The translations under genes were made by a program, and so were the position numbers. Shown piece after piece: positions 5,266 through 64,000 of a DNA stretch of 64,000 nt. Under the pieces are notes generated by a model. That model was not told where the DNA came from, searched no databases, and saw only the letters and a program-made list of their open reading frames with translations. The first letter of the stretch is position 1, and every line of letters begins with the position of its first letter. The stretch spans positions 10,292,001-10,356,000 of the forward strand of contig NC_086379.1 of NCBI RefSeq assembly GCF_036588685.1. Direction: 5' to 3'. The DNA comes from Mytilus trossulus. Taxonomy: Eukaryota.

Positions 5266-5913
5266 TGAAGTCTGTATTATTAATAATTTTCTACACGGTT
5301 TGTTATAATCCTGGTACTTTTGATAACTACTTGCATATTATGATGCAGATGTTTTTTTCTCGATATTTTTATAGTATGAAATTTCAGATATTATTTAACA
5401 CGTGTAAGAAGTGATCAAACTAGATGTAAAGTATTCATCGTTTTATTGATTGTCTTTTTAGTATAGATATATGTATACCACAGACACAGGTGGTCAAAAA
5501 CTTTTAGAGTTGTGTTCGACAAACAACGATCTTAGACAGAACATCACTTATCAGGATGTTTCACAATGATTGCGTATTATCGTCGTTACGAGATCAACAA
5601 ATGCATCGAAGTTTAAATCGGAAATAAGTCGGAAACTTTGAAATGAGAAAAAAATACGACGTCGGATCATAACTTTCTTGGAAGTGAAATAAGTTTTTTT
5701 TCTTAAACCGATAAGTTTTAAATACATTAAAATTGGTTGTTTAGACCTAGTAATTACACTGCAAAACAGGAATTGAACTGCATAACTGTTATATTGAGTT
5801 TTAAAGAAATCAAAATTGATTGCATGAACCAAGGCAAAACAGGAAATGTACCGCATTACTGGTATATTGATAATTATGATGTGATTTGCCAATTGTGAAG
5901 TTGGGAGACAAAA

Positions 5914-6618
5914 ATGAACAACAGTTTCACAAATGAAACTTACATTTCTGAACAAAAGATTTCTCATTTTTTACAAACTATATTCATATTCCTGTATTCT
6001 ATAATCGTAGTAATAGCTATAGGGGGGAATAGTATTGTTTGTTATCTAGTGTATGCGTACAAACGGATGAGAACTATTCCAAATTATTTTCTTGTTAATT
6101 TAGCCATAAGTGATATAATCATGGCGATTTTCTGTATTCCGTTCACATTTGTGGCCAATCTTTTATTAAACTATTGGCCATTCGGTGAAACCATGTGCCC
6201 TTTAGTGAGTTATTTACAAGTGGTAGCAGTGTTTCTGAGCGCATATACATTGGTTGCAATGAGTTTTGACCGCTATATCGTCATTGTTCACCCATTCAGA
6301 CCACGAATTACTACAAGAAAAACCCTTTGTGTTATTATTATCATCTGGATATTATCTTTATCTATACCCATTCCAACATTAATCAAATCAAAAGTGCAAT
6401 ATTATTCAAACACAAGTGGCCAATGTTTAGAAACATGGGATAACAATCACACTTTAATGTATGCATACAGTACAGGAATAATGGTATTACATTTTTTCGG
6501 ACCATTAGTTGTGTTGATATTCTGCTATAGTAGAATAGGATATAACATTTGGAACAAAACTCTTCATGGAAATGATGAAAATAAAAGACGATTACAGTTA
6601 GCGTCAGCAAAACAAAAG
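5914..6618 (+). CDS. Coding exon (235 codons, N-terminus to TM5/ICL3) of a class A neuropeptide GPCR, RYamide/luqin receptor-like
   Basis: N-glycosylation sequons NNS/NET, TM1 AIGGNSIVCY, TM2 NLAISD, YWPFG..MC, DRY, TM4 W, TM5 FFGPL..LIFCY and basic ICL3 end ASAKQK. AAG|GTGCGT donor at 6618/6619 in phase 0; the ORF track's last 8 residues are intronic read-through. Confidence 0.92.
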
Positions 6619-9200: not shown

Positions 9201-9716
9201 TATTATTACCTGATGTTGCCCTATTTATGAACAAGACTAGTATAACCATTTTTTCTAACTTTGAAATGAACCATTTCTTATTACAGAACCGAGTTATGCA
9301 ATTTTCATATTTTGACAACTTCAAAAATATATTTAAGGATAAACGTCGTTTTGTCAATTGAGTATATGACCAGTATGGATGTAATCACCATACTCATACA
9401 CAAAAAGAGTCTTGAATTTCCGATTTTATATAATTAAAACCTTTTGATTTTCAGTATCCCTTTTATGTCATTTTAATCCACATTAATTTGCTGAAAAGTG
9501 AAAATCTGTAATCTTTAACACGCAATCTTCAGTGTCACGAATTATTTATACCTTCGGAAGCTGACTACGCAAACTCACGATATCATACATTCTCTAATAT
9601 AAAAATTTACAAGGTGAAATTGAAGATAACAATGCATTGATTGATTACTGAAAATCAATCATTGAAATTAAAAGTATATTGAACAAATAATTGTACTGCT
9701 TAGTTGTAAGTCTTAA

Positions 9717-11879
9717 TGCCCGCGTCACACTGTCCCGATTTTTACGCCGATGGCAACAAGATTATGGAAATTATGGAATTTTTTTAAATCGGGACTGATT
9801 GTATCCAGATCGGGCTATTCGTAGTGCCATCTTTAACCATCGTAGAACCATCGGTTTTCTTACCTTCGGGGACAATTTCGGGCAGGGTTCTAAATTTTTT
9901 ATAACGGATCAACGAACCCATTACCTTTAACATGTTAAAAAATCACCGAAGGTGTGTCCGATGTTGAGGGTTCGTATTGAGTTCGTATCACCATCCTCAC
10001 CATCGTGATGTCACCGGGAATGCATCTTTGAACATCGTATTGCATTCGTGTTTCCATCGTTGCCATCGGGCAGTTTTGACATTTCGATGTCTACACAAAT
10101 GAATCACGAAGCTACCCGAAGGTCTTACGATGGCAACACGACTTCATGAAGACCTCGTAATCCCGACGTGTTGCCATCGAATAAAAGTACGAAGACGACA
10201 AGATGGAAATACGACGGCAATAAATCCAGCTAAATGTAAGTTATATTTCGCGCTAAAATACATTTAAAGTATTTAAAGTGCCATGCGCGATATGCACTGG
10301 TCAGTCCAATACGACAGTTGAGAAAAACGTTCACAAAACATGGAGCACATATCATATGTTCTATGAGAACAACAAAGGCGACAGCATTGTTTCTATTAAT
10401 TAAAATTGAACAAGAAGAGCAGCTATTACGGGCTCAGGATTTACTTTTACAAGTCAAATATTATTTTTTTGTCAATTTTTCATATCAAGTAACATTATGA
10501 AAATCATAAACGCGCCTCGTACACCAACACTGCAGGTACACGTATATAGGGAGACCAACTTTTTCTTCATTATTCTGATTGTTTATGTATCGTCTGAGTT
10601 GTTGTTACACGAATGGTTACTCTATAACCATTTTGTTTTCTATATGTCATATTTTGCCGCATTTGTTGCTTTCCCAACATCCTTCCTTTTTTCTATATAA
10701 TTATGATATTCTCCTGGAAAGAGCTCTTTTTGAATAAAACGGATCAACGAACCCATTACCTTACCTTTAAGATAGATCAGTAAACATGGGCATAATCATG
10801 GGTGATTACTCAGACTAGTGCACACATTTTACAGTTCAAACAAGTTCAAAAAATCGTATGTAACATATTGGGGACAAATATGGACACTATATTTGTATAT
10901 GACAAATGCAGAAAATGGTAAATTGAATATGCATATTTGATACATGAACTATTTTTTTTAGAAATCCACCAAAACATTCAGTAACTGGAAATACCTTAAA
11001 TATTGTCTTTAGAACCAGCAGGGAAAAAAAGAGCAACCAATTTCCTGTGTATTATGCTATTTCAAGGAAAAAAACAAGTCCATCTGCATGACCTTGACCT
11101 TTGGCCTTGAATGTAAAAAATGGCAGATCATTACAAGGAAGAAAAATATACCAAATGTGGTTAACATCTCTTTAAGCATATTAGTTTTAGAGTGTCCACA
11201 AGGGTGATATTGCCTTGTAATACAACTGCCACTGTGACCTTGACCTTTGAACTTTAAAGTTAATAGCGCTTAAGATATTCTTAACGAATAATACACACCA
11301 AGTTTTAAGCATTTTGGTTCTAGAGTGTCCATTTCAATTTTATCTACACGCAACTTTCATATAGTAGGCGAGGGGATAATAAACTAAGTTTTATAAGAAT
11401 TAGACAAAAGATCGATTTCCCGCCATGCAAGGCAGACTTGTACAGATCCTATATGTTATAGAAATTCTGTTCGTATCATAAAAAAGTTCAAAACAGGTAA
11501 AACGCATTTTTAGATCGTTTGTATACTTGTATTATGTACATACATGTATTTAACCATTATTTATCATCGTATGGCCATCGCGCCATCATCGTAATCCATC
11601 GTGTAGGCTTCGTTTTTCCATCGTGTAGCCTTCGTAATCCATCGTGTAGGCTTCGGCTGAGATAGAAGCTTAAATACCCGTCTTCGGTTAACCTTCGTAT
11701 GTCCATCTTTTGCTATCGTATATAATTTCGGCACCATCGTATAGACTTCGTTTTTCATCGTACTTGCTTCGGTCACTTTTTGGTATATGAACGAGGTCGG
11801 GACCAACTTCGTACGAACTTACAATTTTCGCATTCGGGTGTCCATCGTATATAGAAATCGGGACAGTGTGACGCGGTCA
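9717..11879. mobile_element. Non-autonomous PIF/Harbinger-type DNA transposon, copy 1
   Basis: 25-bp TIRs TGCCCGCGTCACACTGTCCCGATTT (1 mismatch), TAA target duplication (9714-16/11880-82), subterminal CCATCGT repeats; second copy at 23377-25556. Confidence 0.9.
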
Positions 11880-12602
11880 TAAAGGTATTCGTATGATAGA
11901 AAATAGAAATGTTTTTCAATAATGTCACAATACTTAGAATCGTACTATGTTCGTGAAAAATTTATGCTTATTGTTAAAGGTCGTTCGTGGACATAAAATA
12001 GTTGATTTCTTTCTACACGTCATTTGGTCTCTGGTGGAAAGTTGTCTAGTTGGAGCCATACCATATCTTTTTTTTATGATGAAAGCTCAGTACGTATATT
12101 GAATTATCCGTTTATAAACGTGCACGCATTTATTGTTTCTCTGTTCATGCATCAACCAAGATGAAAAAAACAATAAATAATTAAATTGAGAAACAAACCC
12201 TTGACGATCAGTATTATCAGAGATGGAACAACTGTGTTTCATTTTTATGTTCTTTTTCGAGAAATACCTGATGCAGCATACATAAAGATGAAAAATCGCG
12301 TTACAGTTAATCTGCTCAGTTATTGCTCCCTACTAAATATGTTCATGATATAGAACTGATCGACATTTTAATGACTTCTCCAGGTCACCTCTTTATCGCT
12401 AACGAATTTTATTTTAGGTGCACTGAGCAGTAGGATAAATCAAGCTGTCTTCTGTATTTCAACCGCGATTTAATTTTACACATACAACAACTAGATTTGG
12501 ACACCGAGAATAAAAGTTAGATTTACTTGAAAAGTATTCGAGTAAACATTACCTGCATTACTACAGTGCTTGATTCTTAAGAAACACAAATATAGTAATT
12601 AA

Positions 12603-14508
12603 AATGGTATACGTAAACATTTCGAAGAAACACCAATCTAACACTTAATGGTATAAGTAAACATTACGAAGAAAAACCAATCTAACACTTAATGGTGTCA
12701 GTAAACATTACGAAGAAACACCAATCTAACACTTAATGGTATAAGTAAACATTACGAAGAAACACCAATAAACACTTAATGGTATAAGTAAACATTACGA
12801 AGAAACACCAATCTAACACTTAATGGTATAAGTAAACATTACGAAGAAACACCAATCTAACACTTAATGGTGTCAGTAAACATTACGAAGAAACACCAAT
12901 CTAACACTTAATGGTATAAGTAAACATTACGAAGAAACACCAATCTAACACTTAATGGTGTCAGTAAACATTACGAAGAAACACCAATCTAACACTTAAT
13001 GGTATAAGTAAACATTACGAAGAAACACCAATAAACACTTAATGGTGTCAGTAAACATTACGAAGAAACACCAATCTAACACTTAATGGTATAAGTAAAC
13101 ATTACGAAGAAACACCAATAAACACTTAATGGTATAAGTAAACATTACGAAGAAACACCAATCTAACACTTAATGGTATAAGTAAACATTACGAAGAAAC
13201 ACCAATCTAACACTTAATGGTGTCAGTAAACATTACGAAGAAACACCAATCTAACACTTAATGGTATAAGTAAACATTACGAAGAAACACCAATCTAACA
13301 CTTAATGGTGTCAGTAAACATTACGAAGAAACACCAATCTAACACTTAATGGTATAAGTAAACATTACGAAGAAACACCAATCTAACACTTAATGGTGTC
13401 AGTAAACATTACGAAGAAACACCAATCTAACACTTAATGGTATAAGTAAACATTACGAAGAAACACCAATCTAACACTTAATGGTATAAGTAAACATTAC
13501 GAAGAAACACCAATCTAACACTTAATGGTATAAGTAAACATTACGAAGAAACACCAATATAACACTTAATGGTATAAGTAAACATTACGAAGAAACACCA
13601 ATCTAACACTTAATGGTATAAGTAAACATTACGAAGAAACACCAATATAAAACTTAATGGTATAAGTAAACATTACGAAGAAACACCAATCTAACACTTA
13701 ATGGTATAAGTAAATATTACGAAGAAACACCAATCTAACACTTAATGGTATAAGTAAACATTACGAAGAAACACCAATCTAACACTTAATGGTATAAGTA
13801 AACATTTCGAAGAAACACCAATCTAACACTTAATGGTATAAGTAAACATTACGAAGAAACACCAATCTAACACTTAGTGGTATACGTAAACATTACGAAG
13901 AAACACCAATCTAACACTTAATGGTATAAGTAAACATTACGAAGAAACACCAATCTAACACTTAATGGTATAAGTAAACATTACGAAGAAACACCAATCT
14001 AACACTTAGTGGTATACGTAAACATTACGAAGAAACACCAATCTAACACTTAATGGTATAAGTAAACATTTCGAAGAAACACCAATCTAACACTTAATGG
14101 TATAAGTAAACATTTCGAAGAAACACCAATCTAACACTTAATGGTATAAGTAAACATTACGAAGAAACACCAATCTAACACTTAATGGTATAAGTAAACA
14201 TTTCGAAGAAACACCAATCTAACACTTAATGGTATAAGTAAACATTTCGAAGAAACACCAATCTAACACTTAATGGTATAAGTAAACATTACGAAGAAAC
14301 ACCAATCTAACACTTAATGGTATAAGTAAACATTTCGAAGAAACACCAATCTAACACTTAATGGTATAAGTAAACATTACGAAGAAAAACCAATCTAACA
14401 CTTAATGGTATAAGTAAACATTACGGAGAAACACCAATCTAACACTTAGTGGTATAAGTAAACATTACGAAGAAACGCCAATCTAACACCTAATGGTATA
14501 AGTAAACA
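12603..14508. repeat. Minisatellite, ~43 copies of a 44-bp unit
   Basis: Unit AATGGTATAAGTAAACATTACGAAGAAACACCAATCTAACACTT repeated head-to-tail with no unique spacers. Confidence 0.97.
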
Positions 14509-14752
14509 AAACAAATTGTGGATCGATTGATAAACATTTCAGTAAAACAGATGTATCTAAGTAGCTTCAGAAGGTACAAACTATTAGGTAGAATTTTGAA
14601 CGTAACATGTATATGTGTTTGACGCTTTCAAAAAACATTGAATTGTTTAAAATTTTTCTCACTTTTCTAAATGATCTGATATTTTGTAGCATTCACGGGT
14701 CTATGAACGTTTACACTTCCATTTATCGCATATGTATTTTTGAAACAGTGTG

Positions 14753-15896
14753 CACAAGTATTCCACATTCCAAACTAAAAGACAAATTAAAAGAGTTGGT
14801 ATTACTTTGCTTCATAAAAAAGGATGGCCGACGTAGATACAAGTATCTTGTCTTGTCTTTACACTTTGTAAAGAATCATTCTGATTCAAACAAATAATTC
14901 TCTGAAACCGATATTATCAAGATGCTTGATTTCTTGATTGACAACATATTTGTTACGTTCGGAGGACGTGTTTTTCAACAGACTGTCGGCATCCCAATGG
15001 GAACAAACTGTGCCCCTCTACTTGCTGACTTGTTTCTTTATTATTATGAGGCTGACTTCATGCAGGAACTTCTTAGGAAGAAAGATAAGAAGTTAGCAAT
15101 ATCCTTTAACTCTACTTTCCGCTATATAGATGACGTTCTTTCACTAAACAATTCAAAATTTGGTGACTATGTGATCGCATCTATCCCACCGAATTGGAGA
15201 TAAAGGATACTACAGATACAGTTAAGTCGGCTTCATATCTTGACTTACATCTAGAAATTGACAATGAGGGTCGGTTGAAGACAAAACTTTACGACAAAAG
15301 AGATGATTTCAGCTTTCCAATTGTGAACTTTCCATTTTTAAGTAGCAACATTCCTGCAGCACCTGCATACGGGGTATATATCTCCCAATTGATACGATAT
15401 TCCCGTGCTTGCATTTCCTATCATGATTTTCTTGATAGAGGGTTACTGCTCACAAGGAAGCTATTAAACCAAGAGTTCCAAATGGTGAAGTTGAAATCAT
15501 CCCTTCGTAAATTTTACGGACGCCATCACGAGTTGGTTGACCGTTATGGAATAACCGTTTCACAAATGATATCGGATATGTTCCTTACGTCGTAACTATA
15601 ATCCCCTTCCCTTTCATGAATTTGACCTACCGAATTATACTATTTACCGGATTTGTAATCACATAAGCAACACGACGGGTGCCGCATGTGGAGCAGGATC
15701 TGCTTACCCTTCCGGAGCACCTGAGATCACCCCTAGTTTTTGGTGGGGTTCGTGTTGTTTATTCTTTAGTTTTCTATGTTGTGTCATGTGCACTATTGTT
15801 TTTCTGTTTGTCTTTTTCATTTTTAGCCATGGCGTTGTCAGTTTGTTTTAGATTTACGAGTTTGACTGTCCCTTTGGTATCTTTCGTCCCTCTTTT
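14753..15896 (+). mobile_element. 5'-truncated Penelope-like retroelement (Naiad-type RT C-terminal half plus 3' UTR 'family D'), pseudogenised
   Basis: RT motifs TSIPH, GIPMGTNCAPLLADLFL, RYIDDV, YLDL, KLYDKRDDF..PIVNFP and YISQLIRYSRAC, split over three ORFs by a stop and a frameshift. Stop at 15595 with no C-terminal GIY-YIG, consistent with the N-terminal-endonuclease Naiad clade (inference). Confidence 0.85.
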
Positions 15897-17883: not shown

Positions 17884-18300
17884 AAAGTAAAAACACAAAA
17901 ATACTGAACTCCGAGGACAATTCTAAAAGGAAAGTCCAAAATCAAAAGGCAAAATCAAAAGTCCAAACACATCAAACGAATGGATAACCACTGTCATATT
18001 CCTAACTTGGTACAGGCATATTCTAATGTAGAAAATTGTGGATTGAACCTGGTTTTATAGATAGCTAAACCTCTCACTTGTATGACAGTCGCATCAAATT
18101 TCATTTTATGGTTAACTATGCGTGAACAAAACAAACATACTCAAAGAGAAAAAATGTCAAAAATAGGGGTACATCAGTCAACACTGTGTTATCATCTTAA
18201 CCACTATAAAAACAACAAATGAAACGAAGAAGCACAAAAAGGCATACATCAAATTTAACATCCTCATTTTGCATATCTTATACGATTTTGTTTATCTATG
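17884..18300 (-). mobile_element. Dispersed repeat family A, copy 2
   Basis: Homologous to 357-700 and the other A copies. Confidence 0.85.
17990..18089 (-). ncRNA. Twister-P5 motif (family A)
   Basis: Minus strand reads ACTGTCATA CAA GTGA GA GGT ...CCAGGTT C^AA TCC AC A ATTTTCT ACATT AGAATAT G CCTG T ACC AA GT TAGG AA TATGACAGT. P5 is a perfect 9-bp stem; T1 ACC/GGT; T2 AC/GT; P2 is short or imperfect. Confidence 0.7.
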
Positions 18301-22261: not shown

Positions 22262-23376
22262 ATAAGAGTTATTCGCCTGTAATGGCGACGTTTCCCAGGA
22301 TTTTCATTATTTTGTAAATTTTTTAATCTTTAATAATATATACTTAGATAGAAACTTTACAGAGAAATAAAAATGATAAAGAGAGACATAGATACTAAAA
22401 ACGTCAACATGGTTGGAAAAGTAAGTCATGCCAATCCTTCAAAAGAGGTATTGCCCTTTACTTTAAAGTCATAAGAAACGAGTGACTGGTGGAAAATAAT
22501 GTTTATCCAATTCTTGAACCAATGCATGTATATATCATCAACTTAGTCCTCTGTGCACGATTTTATCGTTTTTTACACAACTATATCATATAATCATCAT
22601 CTTGTTTTCTCTCTGTCTGTTATGATTTAACAAATATGGCTACTCATTAAATGCCGTATTTTGAAGCCGAAGTTTACCGATTGTCACCTTATAGTAAATA
22701 ACCAACAAAAAGCATGGGTATTTAGCACGTGTTAAAGATATACAATCAGGTAATTGTTTTTTTAATGACAGATTCATGCGTATTGCTATCACCGGATTTT
22801 TACGAGGAGGGTCATGCTTCGGTCATTATGCATATGGAAAATATGTCGGCGAATTGCTTTCTGGCAGCAGTTAAATGTGTAAACTTCTTAAAAAAATGGA
22901 AAGTCCATATTTAACCTTCTTTTTTCTGCATAATAATCCTGTTTTATCACTTTTCGTTTGCTAAAAATCTTTTCCTTACATCTATATTTCTTGCAGGTCC
23001 CATCTGGTGTTCAACATTATATGTTTTTTTTTTAGTAAGACCCATACTTTTAGCTATTAAATGAATAATATTTCTTAAGATACTAACAAACAAAACTTAT
23101 ACCTACGCCGTAAACATAGTTAACTCTCAGTTATTAAGTAAAATAGATGTTTTTGAACAACAACTAAAAATATGTGAACCGATATCAAACTGTTTATCAA
23201 CAACTTATAACCGAAAGAACAAAGACATTATCATTAGCATATTGTGGGAAATGAAAAAATATTAAGAAAATACATTACATAGTATCAATAAAGGTCTTGT
23301 TCTATCTGACGCAAAGCTTAAGTCGTATTTGATTTTATATACTTCCGTGCTTCGCTACAATGTATGTAATTGTTTA

Positions 23377-25556
23377 TGCCCGCGTCACACTGTTCCGATT
23401 TTTACGCCGATAGCAAGACGATTATGGAAATTTTCAAAATCGGGACTGATCGTATCCAGATCGGGCTATTCGTAGTGCCATCTTTAACCATCGTAAACCA
23501 TCGGCCACTTTTTCTAGCCTTCGGGGACAACTTTGGGAAGGGTTCGAAACTTTTTAACATGTTAAAAAATCCTCGAAGGTGCGTCCGATGTTGAGGGTTC
23601 GTATTGAGTTCGTATCACCATCCTCACCATCGTAATTTCACTGGGAATGCATCTTTGAACATCGTATTGCATTCGTGTTTCCATCGTTTCCATCGGGCAG
23701 TTTTGACATTACGATGTCTACACGAATAAATCACGAAGCTATCCGAAGGTCTTACAATGGCAACACGACTTTGTGAAGACCTCGCAATCCCGTCGTGTTG
23801 CCATCGAATAAAAGTACGAAGGCGCAAGATGGAACTACGACGGCATTAAATCCAGCTAAATGTAAGTTTATTTTCGGGCTAAAATACATTTAAAGTGCCA
23901 TGCGCGATATGCACTGGTCAAATACGACAGTAAAAAAAGACGTTCACAAAATATGGAGCTCATATCGTATGATTCTAGGAGAACAAGAAAAGCGACAGCA
24001 TTGTTTCTATTAATTCAAATGGAACAAGAAGAGCAGCTATTACAGGCTCAGGATTTACTTTTACAAGTAAAATTTTATTTTTTGTCAATTTTTCATGTCA
24101 AGTAACATAATGAAAATCATAAACGCGCCTCTTACAACAACACTGCAGGTTCACGTATATAGGGTAACCAACTTTTTCTTCATTATTCTGATTTTTTATT
24201 TATCGTCTGAGTTGTTGTCACACGAATGTTTACTCCATAGCCATTTTGTTTTCAATATTTCATATTTTGCCTCATTTGTTGCTTTCCCCACATCCTTCCT
24301 TATGTCTATATTATTATGATATTTTCCTGGAAAGGGCTCTTTTTGAATAAAAGGGATCAACGAACCCATTACCTTACCTTTAAGATAGATCAATAAACAT
24401 GGGCATTATTATGGGTGATTATTCAGACTAGTGCATACATTTTACAGTTCAAACAAGGCAATGCCGAGCGTGGCACCTCCTCGTATGTAACATATTGAGG
24501 ACAAATAAGGACACTATATTTGTATATGACACATGCAGAAAATGGTAAATTGAATATGCATATTTGATACAAAAACTATTATTTTTAGAAATCAACAAAA
24601 ACATTCAGTAACTGGAAATACCTGTCTTTAGAACCAGCAGGTTAAGAAATGAGCAACCAATTTCCTCCTGTGTATCATGCTATTTCAAAGAGAAAAAAAC
24701 AAGTCCATCTGCATGACCTTGACCTTTGGCCTTGAACGTAAAAAATGTCAGATCATTACAAGGAGGAACAATATACCAAATGTAGTTAAAATCTTTTGAA
24801 GCATATTTGTTTTAGAGTGTCCACAAGGGTGATATTGCCTTGTATTACAACTGCCACTGTGACCTTGACCTTTGAATTTTAAAGTCAATAGCGCTTAAGA
24901 TATTCATAACGAGTAACACCATACCAAGTTTTGAACATTTTGGTTCTAGAGTGTCCATAATAATTTTATCTACACGCAACTAACATGTAGTAGGCGAGGG
25001 GATAATAAACTAAGTTTTATAAAAATAAGACAAAAAGATCGATTTCCCGCCATGCATGGCAGACTTGTACAGAAACGATATGTTGTCAAAATTCTGTTTG
25101 TATCATAAAAAAGTTCAAAACAGGTAGAACGCATTTTTAGATCGTTTGTTTACTTGTATTATGTCCATACATGTACTTTACCGTTGTTTATCTTGTTTAA
25201 AACGTGTGATGCCTTCGGAATATAATTAAATGCATCGTTAGCTGTACACGATGTCAAAAGACATCGTATGTCCACCGCGCCATCATCGTAATCCATCGTG
25301 TAGCCTTCGTGATCCATCGTGTAGGCTTCGACTGAGTTGTGAAGCTGAAATACCCGTCTTCGGTTAACCTTCGTATATCCATCTTTTGTCATCGTATATA
25401 ATATTGGCACCATCGTATAGACCTCATTATTTATCGTACTTGCTTCGGTCACTTTTTGGTATTTTAACGAGATCGGGACCAATTTCGTACGATCTTACAA
25501 TTTTCGCATTCCGTTGTTCATCGTATATAAAAAATCGGGACAGTGTGACGCGGGCA
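23377..25556. mobile_element. Non-autonomous PIF/Harbinger-type DNA transposon, copy 2
   Basis: Same TIRs as 9717-11879, TTA target duplication (23374-76/25557-59), colinear with copy 1 and in the same orientation. Confidence 0.9.
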
Positions 25557-25739
25557 TTACAATTGATTTGACGGATTTGTTTTTCAACAGACGGTATATA
25601 AACATTACACGTTCTTTGACAGTATTATGATTGTTTTCATGCAGATGTATGTTTCAGATTTCAAAGAATAAGAGTATATGATTTAGACTGATTGATTGTT
25701 GTTTATTGCTATCTATCAGATTTGTTTTTCGTTTTGTAT

Positions 25740-26145
25740 TGTGTGTTCTTGTTTCGAGCTGTTACATCACTGGCCAAGGTTAGAGGAGGGTTTGAGCCTT
25801 AACACCAGTTTAACCATTGCAACTTTTTGTATGTGCTTGTCCCAAATCAAGATCATGTGATTCAGACTGAGTGATTGTCGTTTGCTGATTTCATTCATAT
25901 TGGGTTTCACAGAGGAACATGACTGTCATTGTTCTGTAGATAAGTCAGGCCATTTGTTTCTCGTTTGAGTTGTATTGTATTTGTTATTTCGCTGCCTTTT
26001 ATAGCTGAATATGCAATATGAGTCTTGCTCATTGTTAAAGGTCAATAAGGAGGAACTATCATATAGTGTTAACGTCTATGTCATTTTGGTCTCTGGTGAA
26101 GAGTTGGCTCATTGACAATTATACAACATCTTCTTATTTTTATAT
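25740..26145 (+). mobile_element. Decayed repeat family E (related to C at its 3' end) with a degenerate twister motif at ~25770-25855
   Basis: GA GGG ... T^AA ... G CTTG T CCC AA AT CAAG A; 3' end gagttggctcattgacaattatacaacatcttctt resembles the family C end; a similar 3' fragment lies at 11960-12075. Confidence 0.6.
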
Positions 26146-38779: not shown

Positions 38780-39026
38780 AACATATGTCACGCAACATTG
38801 TCAATATAATGGCATTTGATGCGACTGTCATACAAGTGAGAGGTTGAACTAGCTATAAAACCAAGTTCAGTCCACCAATTTCTACATAAGAAAATGCATG
38901 TACCAGGAATATTTCAGTTGTAATCAAAGTGTTTGATGTGTTTGAGCTTTTGATTTTGCCATTTGATTAAGGACTTTCCGTTTATAATTTTTTTCGGAGT
39001 TTAGTATTGTTGAGATTTTACTTTTT
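38780..39026 (+). mobile_element. Family A copy; twister motif at 38824-38919 disabled by a 5-nt deletion (AAGTC)
   Basis: Reverse complement of the A2 sequence; reads gtacc-aggaat instead of gtaccaagtcaggaat. Confidence 0.8.
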
Positions 39027-39103
39027 GTATATTTAAGAGTCTATTTACATTGTAGTTATGATTTATTTTAAGAGGTCAGTTGAGAAACAAACAAAGTATA
39101 TGT

Positions 39104-39464
39104 TGTGATGTTATGCTATTGTTTCAGAAAAAGGGAGAAGGTTTTGGCCCATTAAAACGTTTAATCCCGCTGCAAATGTTTGCACCTGTCCTAAGTCAGG
39201 AATCTGATGTACAGTAGTTGTCGTTTGTTTATGTCATATATACGTGTTTCTCGTTTCTCGTTTTGTTTATATAGATTAGACCGTTGGTTTTCCCGTTTGA
39301 ATGGTTTTACACTAGTAATTTTGGGGCCCTTTATAGCTTGTTGTTCGGTGTGAGCCAAGGCTCCGTGTTGAAGGCCGTACTTTAACCTATAATGGTTTAA
39401 TTTTTAAATTGTTATTTGGATGGAGAGTTGTCTCATTGGCACTCACACCACATCTTCCTATATC
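39104..39464 (+). mobile_element. Dispersed repeat family C, young copy
   Basis: Almost identical to the reverse complement of 4436-4800. Confidence 0.9.
39124..39207 (+). ncRNA. Twister ribozyme, type-P5 permutation (family C, intact core)
   Basis: P5 TCAGA(39124-28)/TCTGA(39203-07); P2 GGGA(39133-36)/TCCC(39165-68); GA 39137-38; T1 AGG(39139-41)/CCT(39190-92); T2 GC/GT; P3 TGCAA-ATGT-TTGCA; P4 CCTG/CAGG; predicted cut T39162^A39163. Confidence 0.87.
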
Positions 39465-40093
39465 TTAAGTCAAACTCACAAAAATAATACTTTTTTTTTC
39501 ATTGATACAATAACAATATTTTGCCAAAGTCATATTAGAAGTTATTGACAAAATATTGTTGATGATTACAGGAAGACGATTTTGCAGTATTGTTTGAACT
39601 GTCGTATTGTACTTTGTAGAATCTTATAGGACTTAAATAAAGATGGGCGTGAATATTGACAAATTGTTTGCTGGGTATATTTAACATATATTGATACATG
39701 AAATTATTACCGATACAAATTATGTACCTTCAGGTTCCCTGGTTCCATATAAGCGAAACATACTTACAGACACTAAAAGTAGTGATATTCCGGTAACAGT
39801 ATGGACAAATGCAATAATTATGCTGGTACTGGTATAACATGTATAAGTAATACTGAATCATTTACCTTTAACTTGTTTTTCATCGGCTATCGACCACAAG
39901 TCGTTTACCCTCACTCAGTGTGTCAGAGGCCTTCCAGCAGGGATTTGAACAGAATGAAAGAAAAAAGTGCGTGGATGTGCATGAGAAGGATGTTTTAAGT
40001 ATTCAACATGTAAGTAAATACACAAGGTTTAGTCCTCTGCTAGTTATTCTTATAAGAAGTTTTATGCGTTTAGAAAGAGTAGAAATATTTTAA

Positions 40094-42350
40094 CAAAAAT
40101 TAAACTTTGAAAAACAGCTTTTAAAATGTAAAAAAATAATAGCGGATTGGAGTAAAAGAAATCTTACTATTATAGGAAAGATAGTAATCATCAAATCACT
40201 TGTTTTGCCAAACCTAACATATATTGCATCAAACACTTTAATTCCTAAAGAAATGTTGCAAAATTTTAAAACTTTGATATATAATTTTATATGGAAAGGC
40301 AAAAAAGACAAAATAAAAAGATCCACACTTACAAAAGATTTTTTGGAAGGTGGGCTTAAAATGACAGACATTGATGTTTACATAAAATCATTGCATATCA
40401 ATTGGATTCTAAAATTAAACGAAGATAAAAATGATAATTGGACAATCATTCCAAAATTTTATTTCAACAAATTAGGAAAAAATCTTCTTGTATTCAAAAT
40501 GAATTTAAAGAGTATTAAAGACATTGATAAAAATAAGTTACAAAATATACCAGACTTCTACAAGCAACTAATTAAAGATTGGATTAGTGAAAAAGGAGGG
40601 AACACAAAAGATCCCAAAAGATTTTTTGAAATCAGAAAACAAGTTTTGTGGGGTAATGATAATATTAGGTTTAACAGAAAATGTCTAAACTTTGACGATT
40701 GGATAAAAAGCGATATAATTAATATAAATGATATCATTGATGAACAAGGTAAAATCTCTGAAACTACAATCTTATCTAAGCTTAAATATAAACAAAATTG
40801 GATAAACCAAATATATATGTTAAAACAAGCTATACCAAAGAAGTGGAAATTAATTCTTTGTACTGAAGAATCCATCAAAACTAAAGTTAAAGTTGTTAAC
40901 GACTTAAAAATTAGGTATACAACAATAACTCGATTAACAAGCACTAGAGAACTCTATAAAATATTCAAACTAAAAGAAAATCATGAAAAACCAAACGGTT
41001 TTCTTTTATGGGAAAAATTACTTGACAAAAATTTAAATAACAAGTTCAAAAATAACTTTGTTTTTATTTTTCAATATCTCACTGACAACAGATTGAAAAT
41101 ATTTAGATGGAAACTTATTCACTATATTCTGCCATGTAATGAACTATTAAAAAAGTGGAAATTTTTTGAAGACAACTTATGTAAGCATTGTAAAGAAAAA
41201 GACAACTATGAACACTTTTTTGTCAACTGCTTATTTAATACAGACTTCCTAAAAATAGCAATGAAATTAATGAACTCCCTAGGTATAGACAAAAACATTT
41301 TAAGTCTTGAAAATCTAGTAATAGGGTACAAAATTGAAGACTCAGCATACTTTGAGATTAACTACATATTAACAATAATATCCTTTTCATTATATAAAGC
41401 ATATTACGTCTCAGAAAAGAAAACCAAAAAAAATAAACATTTTGAAAATTTTCCAAAAAGAAATTTCAGATATTATTGAAATGAACAATTTTAATAACAA
41501 AAATAATAGTAAGACAATTCTTAAAACAAATAAATTTATTGAAGATTATCAAAAAAATCAGAATTAAATCAGTTTTAAATGTCTGAATATTTCATTATAA
41601 AAGTACAAAACGTAAACACAATTGTTAATTGTTTACATGCCATATATGGTCATGTTTATTCACAGGTTAAATCATGCATGTCGACATGTGTTACAAATAT
41701 GTTTGTAATAATGTTCAACCATGCATAAGCAACGCAATGGTACATATTATTGTTTTATTCATAAACATAAAAGAAAAAACATGTGTAATCACGATTATTT
41801 AATAATTTATTCATAGTGTAGACAAATTGTGAATTGTGCACGCTAAAATGAATGATTTATAACTTGTGTAATACATATACACGACGACATACAATAGATT
41901 AGTAGAAATTTAAACAAAAATGGTATACTTACCAAACTTTATATTATGTTAAATCCTGTTTATAAAAGAATGTTAGACACACTCGGTAATGCGATAACGC
42001 ACATGCTTGTCGAACTTTTACTAATCCCAATTTCTTTCAATGGAACACGGATCATTATAAAATCGATAACGGAAATAATTCCGGAAAATTTCAGATATAA
42101 AAAAAAAAGACAAGAATTTTTTTAACAAAGATCTGTATGTGTATTCACAATATTTATTTAATATATTTGTGATATCAATTATAACTATAGATACTAATAT
42201 TATGAATAAATTATATCTTACCAAATAGTGCTTCCCTAAACTATAAGGTAAACTAACATGAGGGATACTAAGTTACAAGCTGTAAACTTGGTAAATTGTA
42301 ACAGCAAATTTGAAATAAAGATATTTATTACGTTTAAAAAAAAATAAAAA
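40094..42350 (+). mobile_element. 5'-truncated LINE (Tx1/L1 clade): ORF2 C-terminal region, 3' UTR and A-rich tail
   Basis: Open frame 40094-41479 with WSKRNLTIIGK..IKSL, FIWKGK..KIKR..L...GGL and a C-terminal CKHC-x8-HFFVNC zinc knuckle; AATAAA at 42314-19 followed by an A-rich tail at 42336-50. Confidence 0.85.
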
Positions 42351-42520: not shown

Positions 42521-42688
42521 AAAAAGTAAATAAAAAAAAAAACTGAACTCCAAGGAAAATTCAAACACGGAAAGTCCATAACCAATTGGCAAAATCAAAT
42601 GAAAAAACACATGAAACGAATGGACAGCAACTGTCATATTCCTGACTTTGTACAGGCATTTTTCAAATGTAGAAAATGGTGGATTGAA
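42521..42688 (-). mobile_element. Family A fragment whose 5' end lies at the predicted twister cleavage site
   Basis: Homology to A2 stops at ggattgaa (42688); predicted cut between 42686 and 42685. Confidence 0.8.
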
Positions 42689-43735
42689 TAGATGAATAGT
42701 TCAAATATGTTATTTTTTGTCCTGCAATAGTAGAATGATGAAATAAGGTCTGATATTTTGCTTTGTAAACACTTCGTTTTACAATCAAAAATTTCACTCA
42801 GAGTAATTGCGATGGCTGAACAAATCAACGTTGTATATGGCTTTGTCTGGTTTTCTCTTAATGATAAAGATAGATAGTGTACTATAACATTAACTCTTAG
42901 GCATATCACGCAAGGTCTGGGATATTGTAGTGCGAGTTTGTAAAGTTAAAAAAAAGCAAATATTCATCTTGGCAATACTTTTTAGCAAAGGTCGAGAGAA
43001 ATCAGTTAAATTATTAGTTTTGAAATGTGTCATTCGTCAATTTAAAGATCAAATTAGCTGCATTGAAAGTTATAACCATGCTTATAATTATACGAAAATT
43101 AATTAAAAGCAAATGTCAGTTGTCAAATTACATATTTCCTCGGAAATTAACAGTTTTTATATTTGTTCATAATGATACTTTGAAACGAAATATTGCATGC
43201 AGAATTAAGCGCCATAATCGAACATTCGATGAAAGAGCTTCAATGGCATTATAAATCCGCCATCAAAACGTCTAGTCACATCAATGGAATTAAAGACATT
43301 GATTCGAAACTGACACCGCACGATATGACATCTAGTAATTGTTTTGTTGACATTTTATTTCAAGCGTTTATTTGATCTTATTGGTAATTAGATCATCTGC
43401 ACGTTTTGACGTACATTTCCAAGAAATGATAAGTTCATTTATTTTCATTATGGGCTGTGTGCGTATCTTATCATCAACACAAGTAAGTCGTTACGTATTA
43501 CAACTTTATTTTTTATGAAGCTTTTGAGAACGAAGTCAACATCGTTTGAGTGATCTATGCAAATCTAGTACCAACATTAAATATTTTACAAATTTCACAA
43601 TAGCTTTGAACCGATATGTTGCCGTAGTAAAAACCAAGGAAAATCAGAAAATTTCAAACAAACAGTTCAGTTCGAAACGCTTTTTTAAACAGTATTTGGA
43701 GTGCTATGCGAAAATGTATATGGAAACCCATACAT

Positions 43736-47799: not shown

Positions 47800-48627
47800 A
47801 AGACAAATTTTACTTCTAGACAATTTTAAATCTCGGTCTTTTACTGAAATAATTTCTATCAAAACTTTTGATTTTTCAACCCTGTATACCACCCTTACCC
47901 ATGTGAAATTGAAAAATTGCCCAAAAAAATAATCGACAATGTAAAATATAAAAATGGTAGCATACGCTATAAATTTCTTACTTTGGGATTTCATAAGGCA
48001 TACTTCGTTAATAGTGACGAACAAAAAGTTAAAACATGCTACACAGAAGGACAAGTGGTCAGTATGCTGGAGTTTCTTATCGACAGCATATTTGTTGAGT
48101 TTGGACTATTCCAACAAATTGTCGGTTTTCTTATGGAACAAACTGTGCGCCTCTTCTTGCCGACCTCTTCTTATTTTCATATGCATCGGAGTTCCTCCAA
48201 ACACTTTTCAAAAACAAGAGAATCAAAGAAACCAGATTATTTGATTCCACTTTCAGACATATTGATGATGTTCTTTCCATAAACAACCGAATTTTTCTGA
48301 TTCGGTTCCATTAATATATCCCCCAGAACTAGAAATTAAAGAAAAACGGACACGGCCTCATCCGCCTCATTTTTAGATTTATTTCTCGAATTTGACTTAC
48401 ACAGTCATCTTAGTACCAGAATATATGACAAACGAGACGATTTCAATTTTGAAATTATAAATTTCCCCCACCTTAGTAGCAATATACATGTACCAACTTC
48501 ACCTGCATATGAGATATTGATTCCCAACTTATTCGATATTCAAGAGCTTGCAGCTCCTACTCAGACTTTGTAAAACGTCATCAGTGTTTGAGTAGAAAGT
48601 TGATAAACCAGGGGTATGACAAAGAAT
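47800..48627 (+). pseudogene. Decayed Penelope-like (Naiad-type) RT fragment, second subfamily
   Basis: FDFSTLYTTL.H, MLEFLID.IFVEFG..FQQIVG, RHIDDV, IYDKRDDFNFEIINFPHLSSNI, QLIRYSRAC and KLINQGY across several frameshifts. Confidence 0.85.
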
Positions 48628-48629
48628 GA

Positions 48630-48915
48630 TGGCTGCTGTACCCATATTTTGACTGTTTTATTTATTGTGTCTGTTTAGTTAACGCATCATTGTAAATATA
48701 ACGGAATTTGATGAGACTGTCAACAAAGTAAGACGGTTAGCGCTATAAAACCAGGTTTAATCCACCATTTTCTACATTTGAAAAGGCCTGTACCAATTCA
48801 GGAATATGACAGTTCATGTCCATTTGTTTTTGATGTGTTTTGTTATTTGATTTTGCCATGTGGACTTTCCGAATTGATTTTCCTCTAAGTTTTGTATTTT
48901 TGTGATTTAAACTTT
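48630..48915 (+). mobile_element. Family A-type copy directly abutting the RT fragment; degenerate twister at 48716-48813
   Basis: ACTGTCA...GA CGG TTAGCGCTA TAAAACCAGGTTT^AATCCACC...GCCTGTACCAATTCAGGAATATGACAGT. Confidence 0.8.
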
Positions 48916-49357
48916 TTTTTTCCCGAATTGTGTTTATTGTAATATCTCATAAACAGGACAAAACATTTTTAGTGTTATGACCATTGCTAACAAGCAAACA
49001 AGTGGTTTCTATTATCTCTAACCATTATTTTCCATTAAATTCACTTGAGACCTGAAAGTTGTAGATGACGTTAGAAACTTCATTAGTTCTGATTAACATA
49101 TACAGCAAATACTCGTTTTTTTATAGGATTTAAATAATATAACAAGATATATAATAATGATATCTGGGAACTTTATTTGAGTTATTTTTTTAATTAATAT
49201 CTTAGTTGTAAACAAAGAGTCATGTATTCCTTATACCCGTGTGATCAAATAAAAACAAATACGCAATGGTTTTACAGAGGAGAAATTATATTTTTGTTTT
49301 ACCAAACTTTTACATCTATAGGATCCTATTTGGATGTAAAGTTCAATTTGCAGAATT

Positions 49358-59771: not shown

Positions 59772-59955
59772 TGATAGTTATGAAAGGTACTAGGATTATA
59801 ATTTAGTACGCCAGTCGCGCGTTTTGTCTACATAAGACTCATCAGTGACGCTCATATCAAAATATTTATAAAGCCAAACAAGTAGAAAGTTGAAGAGCTT
59901 AGAGGATCCAAAATTCCAAATAATTGTGCCAAATACGGCTAAGTTAATCCACGCC
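59772..59955 (-). mobile_element. Hammerhead-bearing repeat (PLE pLTR/retrozyme-like)
   Basis: Contains the hammerhead relic below; degenerate relatives at ~28960-29020, ~36860-37050, ~58350-58390 and 5303-5329. Confidence 0.65.
59809..59850 (-). ncRNA. Minimal type I hammerhead ribozyme relic (inactive)
   Basis: Minus strand reads CGTCA CTGATGA GTCT-TATGT-AGAC AAAA CGCGCG AC TGGCG: stems I and II and a palindromic stem III are present, but GAAA->AAAA and GTC->GAC. Confidence 0.75.
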
Positions 59956-60642
59956 TTGAACGTGTTATTCCCTACAGCCAGGTTATTCGCATCTTCAAGG
60001 AGGAAAAACAAATGACAAACCTGGAAAAAAGAAAAAAAACAATGTAATAAACTTTTAAGATACAAATGTCGCTACAGTTTTATTTCAGTTCTTAGAAATA
60101 AACTCAGAATAATGAGACCAACTATTTGCTGGACACATGTGTTTTTATTGTTTATCTTATTAACAGGCTATTCTATGAACAAACTGAAAACAAGAAACAT
60201 TGTTTTATATCTTTAATAAGACAGATATCTAACTAACATAAACATTTAATCATGCTGAAGAAATAAACATTGACAAGTAAAACAGGAGACCTACATTGCA
60301 TTAAATAATGTATTGTTTTGTCAAGGACTTGGAGATATATGTTATTCAACGTCTGACCAATCACTTATGAATACAAAAAATGAATGCACGGTGTTACTTA
60401 AAAATATTGTTTTGTTAGTTTCAAAATGGTTTTGAAGCTTTGGTATAGAAATTATCAGTGTTTAATATAATATGATTCCAGATAGTTAAAATATAAAACA
60501 TTTTTAATATTCAAGGGATTTTGTAGGCAAAATATAAATAGCAAAAAAAGTCAATTGGGAATTTTAATGTCGGAAAAACTTAATTTCGGATGGTTACTTT
60601 CGTCACGAACAGAACGTTGAGATAATTTTTACTTGAATAACT

Positions 60643-61456
60643 AAATTTGAGAATGGAAATGGGGAATGTGTCAAAGAGACAACAACCCGACATTAGAAAA
60701 AAAACAACAGCAAAAGGTCACCAGCAGGTCTTCAATGTAGCGCGAAATTCCCGCACCCGAAGGCGTCCTTCAGCTGGCCCCTAAACAAATATATACTAGT
60801 TCAGTGATAATGAACGCCACACTAATTTCCAAGTTGTACACACGAAACTAAAATTAAAATAATACGCAATAAACAAAGGCCAGATGCTCCTGATTTGGGA
60901 CAGGCACAAAACTACGGCGGGGTTAAACAGGTTTATGAGATCTCAATCCTCCCCCTATACCTCTAGCCAGTGTAGAAAAATAAACGCATAACAATACGCA
61001 AATTAAAAATGCAGTTCAAGAGAAGTCCGAGTTCGATGTCAGAAGATGTAACCAAAAACAAATTAAACAAAATGACAATAATACATAAATAACAACTGAC
61101 TACTAGCAGTTAACTGACATGCCAGCTCCAGACTTCAATTAAACTGATTGAAATATTATGATTTTATCATATGAATATCAGGCACAATCCTTCCCGTTAC
61201 CGGTTTAGTATCATACCATCGTAACATATATGAGAAGATCATAACCCGTGTCACGCCAACAACTGGTTATTAAATAAGTGTATTTAGTTCCGATGCAAAG
61301 AACCTATAAGTGAATCAATATTAACGCCAACATATGTAATCTTTAATGACCTGACAACAGTATCGTATCTATATCCCTTCTTAATAAGTCTATTTAAAGG
61401 TTTTGTTAGTTTCTGAGTTGAATACTGACATGTTTGTGTTGTATAAAGAATATTTC
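60643..61456 (-). mobile_element. Family B long copy: end of a coding frame (61454-61284), 3' UTR and degenerate twister (60878-60968)
   Basis: 60643-61050 is homologous to B1-B3; the upstream part has a 56-codon open frame ending ...LIGSLHRN*. Confidence 0.8.
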
Positions 61457-62278
61457 TTCTTAAAAAAAATAAAAATAATAATAAATGTTTTTTTTTCGCA
61501 AATCGATCTTCTTCAAAATATCTAAACCAAACAAATGTGCAATATAATTTAAGTAAAATAAGTAGTTTATGCTAACTCGAGTTGCAAGGTCAAATTATTC
61601 TTTAGGATTCTGTTTGATTGAATTGTTTCGAATTATTTCACTTTTTAGCTTTTAAACTTGTAACTTTGAGTAATCCCTTTTTCGGTCAACGCATTAACTC
61701 ATTCCAAATGAAATTAAAATAACAAAGTCTTATAATTCTAGTTAAGTAATAAGTCCAACAGAAAGTCTATTTAATATGCTGTCGTGGACAAATTCAAATC
61801 GTCTGTGTTTTTCGATGCAAAAAAAGCCACTAGAAATGACGTAAGACAATGTAAACAGAATGCAGTTCTTTGAGTGAATTTTACATGAACCTGTGCTACA
61901 TAATAACATTTTGATCGATACTTCTTTCGATTATTTATAGAACATTCAATTTTGGATAGATTCAGCTGTTTCAATTAGTGTTCCGTTTTGAATTTTCTTA
62001 GATGACAGATCTTACGAATTACAAAATACTTTCAACTCAATGTATTAGCTTTTAAAATCATTGACTAAAGACACTCAAGTGGTTAGATTACGTACGATTT
62101 CAAGGTTGCTTGTTGACCAAGTAGAAAGTTTAAATATTTAATTACCATTCGACGTGAAAATATGCATTTTTGTGACTTGAACTATATTTATCTAAATTTT
62201 TTAAAGAATCACAGTTAAGGGTACCAAGACCAAGACAGGCATAAATAGACAAGTTCAACCGATTCCCTGTCAAACTAT

Positions 62279-62463
62279 ATAGATATAGGAAGATGTGGTG
62301 TGAGTGCCAATGAGACAACTCTCCATCCAAATAACAATTAAAAAAATGTAAACCATTATAGGTTAAAGTACGGCCTTCAACACGGAGTCTTGGCTCACAC
62401 ATAACAACAAGCTATAAAGGGTCCCCAAATTACTAGTGTAAAACCAATCAAACGGGAAAACCA
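62279..62463 (-). mobile_element. Family C 3' fragment
   Basis: Near-identical to 4436-4620. Confidence 0.9.
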
Positions 62464-62664
62464 ATATGTTCATTTCTATCATACAACTTCGAATTTTTAA
62501 TGTCTGCTGCTATTCTGCATGTCACTCAAAGAGTCGATTTAGATAAATACCAAGAGTAAATATAATAATACATTGATCCTTGCTTTTTCCATTAAGTCAA
62601 TGTCAGGAATTTCAAGCTAATTCAGGACCAGAACAAATAGTTTGTATATAGATCAGACAGTTAG

Positions 62665-62842
62665 ATTTCCTGTTTGAACTATTGTACACTATCATTTTTA
62701 AGTCCTCTTTAGCTTGCTGTTCGGTGTGGAACAAGGCTCCTTGTTGAAGACTGTACGTTTACATTTTAATGGTGTTTTTTTTTCACATGATGATATGGAC
62801 GGAGAGTGATTTCATTTGCACTCATAACCCATCTTCCTATTT
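62665..62842 (+). mobile_element. Family C 3' fragment, older, inverted relative to 62279-62463
   Basis: agcttgctgttcggtgtg..caaggctcc..gttgaag...ggagagtg..tcattt gcactcat..ccatcttcctat. Confidence 0.75.
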
Positions 62843-64000
62843 GTAATAGATATAAATTGTATGTTCTTAAAATGTTGTCAACTGTGATGATGAACGTGAA
62901 TTTGTACTGTCAATATGATAAAAAAAAGTTACTAGTATGTTGGATAGTGGCTGGTATTTTCCCATGCATAAGACCATTCGTTGAGTTGATAAAGTGTTTT
63001 AACGTACATGCGCGTGTTACTAGCTGACCAAATATCCTGGTTGTAAATCATTAACTGTGTATCTCAGTTAAGAGATGTATTACCGTCTTGTACTTAATGT
63101 GAACGAGTTATTACATTGTTTTCCAATAAGTGTTTCATTATATTTTGCTGACAAGTCCTGTGTCAAGAAGACACAATAACATTTCAATCATACAGCTGCA
63201 AAATAGTTAATATAAATTTCTTAACAGTGTACAATGATTGTTTTACTACCGCTTGAAGTTCATTCACTATCAGGAAAATGATAGTATTTTACTTTTTTGA
63301 TGGAGGAAGGTTACAGGTATATATACTATTAGCTTAAAAGGACAATTCATATGATAAATACAGCATTTTGCTTTGCATAATACAATTGAAATTCTTGAGG
63401 TTTGATTTGACTTCAAAGTGTTTTGTTTTGTCCGTTTCATGTCTTAAAATTGTGAAAATTATTTTTTTATTATCGATGTTATAACAAAAAAATTGATGGC
63501 TACTGGTATGAAGCCCCTCATAACGTTTCCGGTCTGTACAAATTATCCGTTTTGCAACTTTTACTTCATCATTATATCAGAGTTTTGAGAAACTGATAGT
63601 CTTTATTTACAGCATAAGTTAATTGATTTCCATTGTTACAACTAAGAGAACTTAACCAATACTACTTTTATATTATATAACACGGTAAATATACACCAAA
63701 GAATCGTGTGATCAGCACTAATCTTTAATTCAGCTACATCATGAAAGAAATTGATGAAGTTGTCAAACTAATTTTTCTGCTGTGTATACGTTAATACACA
63801 ATCGTTATTCTAAAAGCAATACAGCTTATATATATCAGTACAATACATGTTGTATTAGGATTCATATAGTACAGTTTTAAGAAACTCATGAAAATGATTT
63901 AATTTGGGATCTTTTGACTCTGTATTATTTTCTTTCGTCGGATTTTATTTAAACAATTTAAATTGTAAAAATGAGACAACATATGAAATAAAACGTCATC

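Follow-up and report, generated by a model that had tools for sequence, protein, structure and literature searches.

A predicted type-P5 twister ribozyme variant at the 3' end of a mussel Naiad retroelement

Introduction

For tandem insertions of Penelope-like elements (PLEs), two earlier studies describe a transcript with two ribozymes, its possible dimeric cleavage to unit-length RNA and a circle that may be copied repeatedly (PMC4209133, PMC6765202). A 2026 preprint on retrozymes and PLEs treats, in its accessible part, hammerheads only. For the Naiad clade of PLEs the absence of canonical hammerheads is reported and twisters are not mentioned (PMC8557442); in such very successful elements, this lack was read as a hint that the ribozymes might be parasitic or not needed (PMC8557442). 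Hallmarks of Naiads are a CxC linker, GxKF/Y, a KR-rich block, DKA in place of DKG and CX2-5CxxC before the GIY-YIG domain; selenoprotein Naiads have so far been described from clams and spiders (PMC8557442).

Twister ribozymes are known from the 5' end of RTE retrotransposons, according to the accessible sections of PMC8501958 and PMC7761336. Stem P1 belongs to the twister consensus yet is dispensable for activity, and G-U pairs in the pseudoknots are tolerated (PMC5408937, PMC11662667, accessible text). In a large screen, twisters did not tolerate simultaneous mismatches in the two pseudoknots (PMC11662667).

Here, a stretch of 64,000 nucleotides from Mytilus trossulus (the window) was analyzed, in which a preliminary description had placed a repeat, family B, behind the end of a retroelement-like ORF. 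With a probability of roughly 0.7, we read family B as the 3' end of a Naiad, in which a SECIS-like element is followed by a predicted twister that likely cuts the element RNA in a hammerhead-like role. The ORF is linked in one unit to the SECIS-like element, the twister-like fold and a fixed 3' end. No report of a twister in a PLE was found in the literature, the original twister lists, Repbase and Dfam being outside the scope of this search, and the pairing of a twister variant with a Naiad is apparently unreported.

Family B copies and the decayed element end

Self-BLAST of the window gives four B copies with one 3' end and variable 5' ends, exactly the pattern previously described. The copies and the coding remnant are:

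60642..61456, minus strand: 5'-truncated Naiad copy, the last ~820 nt of a 4017-nt unit (91% identity to loci L001 and L006 over 771-828 nt)
61284..61454, minus strand: end of the EN-RT ORF, with its final 56 codons (residues 947-1002) and TAA
43734..44073, minus strand: second B copy, beginning 13 nt ahead of stem P5
8874..9206, plus strand: third B copy, beginning 5 nt ahead of P5
2866..3255, minus strand: fourth B copy, more diverged

All four finish at position 4016-4017 of the 4017-nt unit and start in it at about 3194, 3626, 3674 and 3682. The stop-free minus-strand frame of 56 codons at 61454-61284 and its peptide were recovered as first reported, and the distance of ~315 nt given between ORF end and twister agrees with the measured gap of 315 nt between the stop end (61284) and the start of P5 (60968). 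Since the window contains 194 stop-free frames of at least 56 aa, a frame of this length is not beyond chance and the case rests on homology. The peptide matches the C-terminus of RT protein P0002 over its whole length (88% identity, E 1e-22); of 17 candidate proteins five match at 76-88%, with the C-terminal end of a 435-aa RT as the top match. These RT-linked homologues bear out the proposal that the peptide is the C-terminal extension of a Naiad-type PLE protein. A likeness drawn between RLIKKGY and KLINQGY in the RT at 48600 has to be given up, as the two come from different ORF regions: the RT piece at 48135-48617 aligns to full-ORF residues 745-904, ending at KLLHQGF, and the window peptide to residues 947-1002. 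KLINQGY is the counterpart of KLLHQGF, which precedes RLIKKGY by some 70 residues.

A scan of metagenome contigs yielded eight loci (L001-L008), and the source samples of matching contigs include mollusc and gill metagenomes. Window 60636-61467 aligns to L001, L002, L003 and L006 in one colinear stretch at 87-91% identity; beyond 60620-61455 the contig cover drops by about five orders of magnitude. Extending family B in the 5' direction recovered a full ORF with no SINE head before B, and the idea that family B is the 3' UTR or pLTR end of an autonomous PLE gains firm ground from the colinearity of ORF end and B in the same four loci. Three of the four window copies lack an ORF, as would be expected if family B were a separate SINE or other non-autonomous repeat that chance or a single fusion had brought next to an RT fragment. 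This explanation is hardly credible, being contradicted by the colinear order of ORF, UTR and motif in L001-L007 (seven of the eight scan loci; the L008 contig ends before that place). An Rfam search gave no tRNA match in L001-L008, and full-length copies carry no tRNA-like head. UTR divergence tracks RT divergence among the loci, and an RT end followed by the motif is also found in L004, L005, L007, L050, L052/L108 and L109. At L052/L108 (L108 = G001:C49) the motif lies ~250 nt downstream of an intact Naiad ORF of 1017 aa.

The full element and its Naiad identity

The whole unit is present in L001-L003 (~4.02-4.03 kb; reference unit 4017 nt), where the 5' UTR follows the 3' end immediately in head-to-tail order and the contigs show terminal redundancy. 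Full-length copies start with a UTR of 366 nt, followed by an EN-RT ORF of 1002 codons with TGA read through. Its order is N-terminal GIY-YIG, CxC, DKA and C-terminal RT. The GIY-YIG motif, IIYLL..QYVGET, is located at residues ~91-110, and profile A4 matched the I-TevI domain 1ln0 (E 0.009). Pfam gave neither an RT nor a GIY-YIG match on this ORF itself, and a single-sequence PDB search no RT match; relatives carry PF01541 and PF00078. The Naiad motifs C385-x-C387, G420-P-K-Y, D512-K-A and C-x4-U-xx-C and a KR-rich stretch after EN are all present. Further Naiad-like traits are 5' truncation, partial tandems (pLTR) and a unit length of 4017 nt, where 3.4-4.4 kb is expected. Along L001 the summed contig depth in run X1, a rough measure and not a copy number, increases from 0.2-0.8 million in the 5' part of the ORF to 21-24 million in the final 260 nt, a gain of about 30- to 100-fold, and breaks off abruptly at the 3' end. 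In a tree of RTs that included no named Naiad, the element groups with N-terminal-EN proteins, apart from the C-terminal-EN L115, whose branch is very long.

By sequence comparison, window 60642-61456 is confirmed as a 5'-truncated copy of a 4.0-kb Naiad-clade PLE, which likely represents a mussel Naiad family not among the 54 listed in PMC8557442.

Just behind the head-to-tail junction lies a stretch of pyrimidines closing with ACAG (L001 136-143), which resembles a 3' splice site. Other PLEs have an intron in the 5' UTR, which would be a parallel. No spliced joint for this site was seen in RNA contigs; these are metatranscriptome assemblies that may hold DNA, and they cover the element and show no ends, splice joints or expression.

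Other observations concern the sources and the remaining window. Bacterial bins of mussel symbionts contain animal retroelement DNA (L108, L050, L092, L096). A hammerhead-like motif with a core substitution at window 59816-59854 (-) is likely a single mussel retrozyme-type copy. The window also holds a tandem array at 12579-14508 (period about 88 nt, 93-97% identity), the C-terminal part of a LINE-like ORF at 40094-41479 (+), a 2.2-kb repeat pair at 9705-11880 and 23365-25557 (86% identity) and an open frame at 5899-6645 (+), which resembles an exon of a class A GPCR, neuropeptide-receptor-like.

Features of a likely selenoprotein

In-frame TGA codons are found at positions 55, 86, 97 and 522 in all three full ORFs, and most aligned relatives have Cys at the TGA positions; L004, L007 and L008 have Cys at the position of the fourth TGA of L001. 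About 50 nt after the stop, five of the eight loci (L001-L004, L006) match SECIS_1 with 28-32.3 bits (E 0.007-0.1), where the gathering score is 35. The window copy retains a trace of it:

61168..61232, minus strand: decayed SECIS-like element (SECIS_1 16.1 bits, E 3.4)

Judged from these sequence features, the four TGA codons are very probably read as selenocysteine, and the element is likely a selenoprotein Naiad. If true, a selenoprotein retroelement is added in mussels.

A predicted type-P5 twister variant

The twister-like motif lies between the SECIS-like element and the common 3' end. Its parts in the window copy are:

60878..60968, minus strand: type-P5 twister-like motif (Twister-P5 23.1 bits in L001; covariation)
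60960-60968 with 60878-60886, minus strand: stem P5
60947-60955, minus strand: P2/G-A/T1 strand
60936..60945, minus strand: palindrome 1 (10 nt), at the position of P1
60925..60934, minus strand: palindrome 2 (10 nt; broken here by one substitution), its last base lying immediately 5' of the predicted cut
60924..60925, minus strand: predicted U^A cleavage site, by alignment to Twister-P5, 286 nt upstream of the common 3' end
60889-60904, minus strand: P4-L4-P4

In the RNA, the order is P5, P2, G-A-T1 strand, insert, U^AA, P2, T2, P3, P4-L4-P4, P5. The Rfam Twister-P5 model aligns end to end (1-58 of 58) to L001 3836-3902 with 23.1 bits (E 0.0036 for 141 nt), 14.5 bits short of the gathering score of 37.6. 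Whole-window Rfam scans, both at gathering and at E<=10, missed the twister; the window copy of family B at 60 kb (B60) gave no twister match at E<=10, and the scan of L001-L008 returned only a 20-bit match to a P1-type twister, in L007. Every twister core position is nevertheless present, P2, P4 and the pseudoknots T1 and T2 included, and the conserved nucleotides of L1 and L4 are invariant or near-invariant among copies. Stem P1 is absent, with two short palindromes in its place; as P1 is dispensable in the twisters that have been tested for it, the P1-less motif was filed as a twister variant.

The motif is therefore described as a predicted type-P5 twister ribozyme in variant form, and its conserved core suggests that intact copies probably self-cleave at U^A. 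Compared with L001, the window's own copy has changes at 10 of 111 positions; each pseudoknot holds one of them, as does palindrome 2. With mismatches in both pseudoknots, a combination that was untolerated in the screen (PMC11662667, accessible text), it is probably inactive. If the prediction is true, a natural twister architecture with very many copies in bivalve DNA has been missed by the Rfam cut-off.

The window holds 12 twister-like motifs of at least three families, as counted with model R1, whose training set includes nine of the 12. Family A, which forms the 3' end of an element resembling Naiad_Mgal, has such motifs at 48704-48821 (+), 17982-18101 (-) and 449-568 (-), and further ones at 38812-38926 (+) and 42622-42737 (-). 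The RT at 48.6 kb belongs to this other, also twister-bearing Naiad family: at 47855-48917 an RT piece is joined to a family A twister end across an internal deletion, and the segment appears by eye to be a close, internally deleted copy of Naiad_Mgal, as far as the accessible consensus goes. Family D consists of two copies that are 99% alike, at 4438-4806 (-) and 39097-39465 (+), and contains a third twister-like variant with T1 and P2 altered compensatorily. Its 3' end also occurs as an inverted pair at 62275-62849, and a search for its parent ORF found none. A decayed twister-like motif of another family is located at 25761-25871 (+) (43.7 bits with model R1).

Covariation of the twister-like stems

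Sixteen copies of the motif were aligned with MAFFT without regard to structure. In this alignment 90.9% of 254 cells pair, against 28-43% in slid controls, and eight of 16 pairs (two of three in T1) show two-sided change, which was reached by none of 500 shuffles; the 16 rows are related to each other, so that the covarying changes represent few events. The two-sided changes are located in P2, T1 and P3. T1 occurs as G-C, A-U or U-A in step with L4, and T2 shows no two-sided change among these copies. A second measure, 'further pair types', was matched by 120 of 500 shuffles and is thus not above them. Two P2 columns stay unpaired in five to six of the 16 rows, since the P2 of A-type copies is bulged and has 3 bp. 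The P5 flanks differ wholly in sequence between families, yet pair inside each (-13 to -22 kcal/mol within the own family; -1.6 to -12.8 across families). Between L001 and L004, L005 and L007, the motif region is 75-96% identical and the remaining UTR mostly 40-70%.

Eleven further motif matches come from bivalve-like contigs of bacterial bins; here two of 11 pairs change two-sidedly, a value reached by 92 of 500 shuffles. Published Naiad ends (Mgal, Bpla, Mphi, Scon, Mmer), compared by eye in the accessible part of the supplement, add compensatory pairs in P2, P4, T2 and P5. Two-sided changes in T2 and P4 are found only in these consensi, by eye, and Mphi, Scon and Mmer have U-U as their third T1 pair.

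The twister score below the Rfam cut-off, and the fact that cleavage is a prediction, also suit a fold that is twister-derived and not needed for cutting in transposition, serving instead as an RT-binding signal or persisting as a passenger. Many Naiads have spread without a recognised ribozyme (PMC8557442), and the same role has been suggested for PLE hammerheads. This explanation is quite improbable, for the unpaired catalytic positions (the A after the cut, the G-A before T1 and L4) have been kept among families with diverged stems.

Two palindromes in place of P1

The inserts that replace P1 contain the pairs TGAGATCTCA and AAACATGTTT in L001, TGGGATCCCA and AAACTAGTTT in L005, TGGGCCCA and AAACGTTT in the window copy at 4718 and GGCGCC and AATCTGATT in L050. 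Two palindromes were found at shuffle p<0.05 in 13 of 16 inserts. The exceptions are window copies B60 (p 0.16) and D39 (p 0.056), together with A18, which at p 0.046 would be the 14th insert to pass, by a small margin, and is not taken as strong; inserts D39, D4, A48 and B43 were taken from a wrong 5' anchor and are hence slightly lengthened. The letters of the palindromes vary between copies while self-complementarity is kept, also in the centre letters, for which a hairpin has no pairing partner. A lone insert has no stable fold; as a homodimer it reaches -15.4 and -19.6 kcal/mol. Hairpins were rejected (loops of 0-2 nt, no stable fold), and a sequence-specific DNA-binding site is unlikely when letters change and symmetry stays.

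Self-complementary centres and a fold that forms only as a homodimer indicate pairing between two copies. Modelling of this kind leads us to hold tentatively, at slightly below even odds, that the two palindromes pair between two copies and that cutting depends on the second copy. By simple reasoning, both palindrome helices at once would interlock two closed loops until the cut, which makes a full two-helix dimer awkward before cleavage.

The awkwardness disappears if the twister works as a P1-less monomer and the palindromes act elsewhere, by pairing the 3' ends of cut RNAs, by folding single-stranded cDNA or by directing template jumps, the last of which would make tandem and inverted insertions. 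Cleavage opens the loop, so that no interlocking arises; palindrome 2 ends at the base 5' of the cut and would become a free 3' end after cleavage; and P1 is dispensable in the tested twisters. We nevertheless regard a monomer as rather unlikely. If efficient, it would cut every template 286 nt from the 3' end, and all four B copies cross that place, which would need re-ligation. In addition, the predicted monomer fold hides the cut site: in the lowest-energy fold of the lone RNA, from a fold model without pseudoknots, it is paired with the T1 strand.

Proposed mechanism

In the preferred reading, that of a twister which cuts the element RNA, the RNA of an intact copy would be cut at U^A, and the palindromes of two copies would pair and thereby gate the cut. 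A head-to-tail insertion would give a transcript with two twisters, and two cuts would release unit-length RNA. All four B copies continue past the cut site for another 286 nt, which implies that the template was uncut or re-ligated there; the simplest option would be a circle copied more than once round. By analogy, the complete scheme, with a tandem transcript cut to unit-length RNA and an uncut or re-ligated template, most simply a circle, has about an even chance of being right. Copies beginning at the predicted cut were sought, and no excess of them could be established. The similarity of the second motif of L097 sets in there and that of window 42656 (-) no more than 3 nt away, which is too small a number for a count.

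If the preferred reading is true, the occurrence of an unrelated ribozyme at the same place, with palindromes by the cut, would argue for self-cleavage and two-copy pairing as parts of the mechanism.

Breadth among Naiads

The 3' ends of 17 of the 54 published Naiad consensi were compared, in the accessible part of the PMC8557442 supplement, where the CGi and Esco ends were assigned by list order; the other 37 were probed with short words only. The twister motif and both palindromes are present at the 3' end of five of the 11 bivalve Naiads (Mgal, Bpla, Mphi, Scon and Mmer), and 12 of the 17 accessible ends have no twister; the Naiad_Mcor consensus, as accessible, stops before the twister position. 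Another two-palindrome motif, motif C, is found in this material in five bivalve Naiad ends (CGi, Sglo, Olur, Tgra, Pmar) and in all four hemichordate ends. Two cephalopod ends in the same part showed, by eye, neither twister nor motif C. In the window, motif C is represented by family C:

15670-15765, plus strand: motif C, within the 3' UTR of a further Naiad family whose RT is at 14739-15571; also at L110 and L118

Motif C combines covarying helices with two palindromes, and its hosts are oyster, ark-clam, pearl-oyster and hemichordate Naiads (nine published ends, from the accessible part). Rfam gave no meaningful match for it. As a twister-sister, judged from the accessible part of PMC11620745, one loop strand fits and the other does not, and it was left unclassified. 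From its sequence pattern it is a candidate unclassified ribozyme.

A tree of 32 RT pieces places the elements with a twister in two distinct groups, both with good support, one with L001-L007 and the other with L108, L050 and the window RT at 48 kb; the motif C group is nearer to the latter. Among three C-terminal-EN PLEs from the same bins, a hammerhead core was found downstream in two and a twister in none. A pattern scan of genome contigs gave 81 loci, about 72 of which are chance matches in bacterial DNA and were excluded; L010, L011, L014, L036, L042, L050, L052 and L083 look like animal DNA in bacterial bins. Three pattern scans of viral contigs gave no match.

It is conceivable, and in our view doubtful, that Naiads replaced rather than lost their ribozyme, with a dimer-gated twister in mussel and clam and motif C as a new self-cleaving class in oyster, ark-clam and hemichordate. 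If true, Penelope-like transposition would generally need the palindrome-mediated pairing of two copies, and this need would have been solved convergently.

Comparison with known systems

The closest described elements are the clam Naiads Naiad_Scon and Naiad_Mmer, which likewise have an N-terminal GIY-YIG, CxC, DKA and a C-terminal RT (PMC8557442). Their TGA codons are likewise found at the Cys before GIY-YIG, at the first Cys in the CCHH motif and eight residues beyond DKA (PMC8557442). Their SECIS, directly after the stop, corresponds in place to the SECIS-like element of the window family, the C-terminal extension is shared, and their consensus ends have the same twister-like motif. Unlike in these two, the fourth TGA of the window element is at the second Cys of CX2-5CxxC, as in the spider Naiad_Sdum. 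For Naiad_Mgal and Naiad_Mcor, the accessible part of PMC8557442 gives no Sec annotation, and their proteins differ from that of the window element.

With the type-P5 twister of Rfam (RF02684), the motif shares the stem order, the U^AA site, the G-A-GGG strand, P4, L4, T1 and T2. It differs in that P1 is replaced by palindromes and L4 ends in U (G-U or A-U in T2). Moreover, the candidate scores below the gathering cut-off, is located in the 3' UTR of an animal retroelement and is known from sequence alone.

The minimal type I hammerheads of PLEs (Cervera and de la Pena 2014, PMC4209133) are, in the accessible part of that paper, likewise located near the 3' end or in the pLTR. They have a weak helix beside the cut, palindromic loops and a proposed dimer and circle model (PMC4209133, PMC6765202, accessible parts). 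Their fold is unrelated, and they have, as far as these parts go, one loop of 2-4 nt in contrast to the two palindromes of 6-12 nt seen here. The T-variants of Perere-3 (RTE clade, Schistosoma mansoni) are, as here, twisters with an altered P1 in a retrotransposon (Liu et al. 2021, PMC8501958, accessible part). In Perere-3 the twister occupies a LINE's 5' end, where its cut sets the 5' end of the insertion and the target supplies P1 (PMC8501958), whereas the window element combines the P5 permutation with a position in a PLE 3' UTR, 286 nt short of the 3' end.
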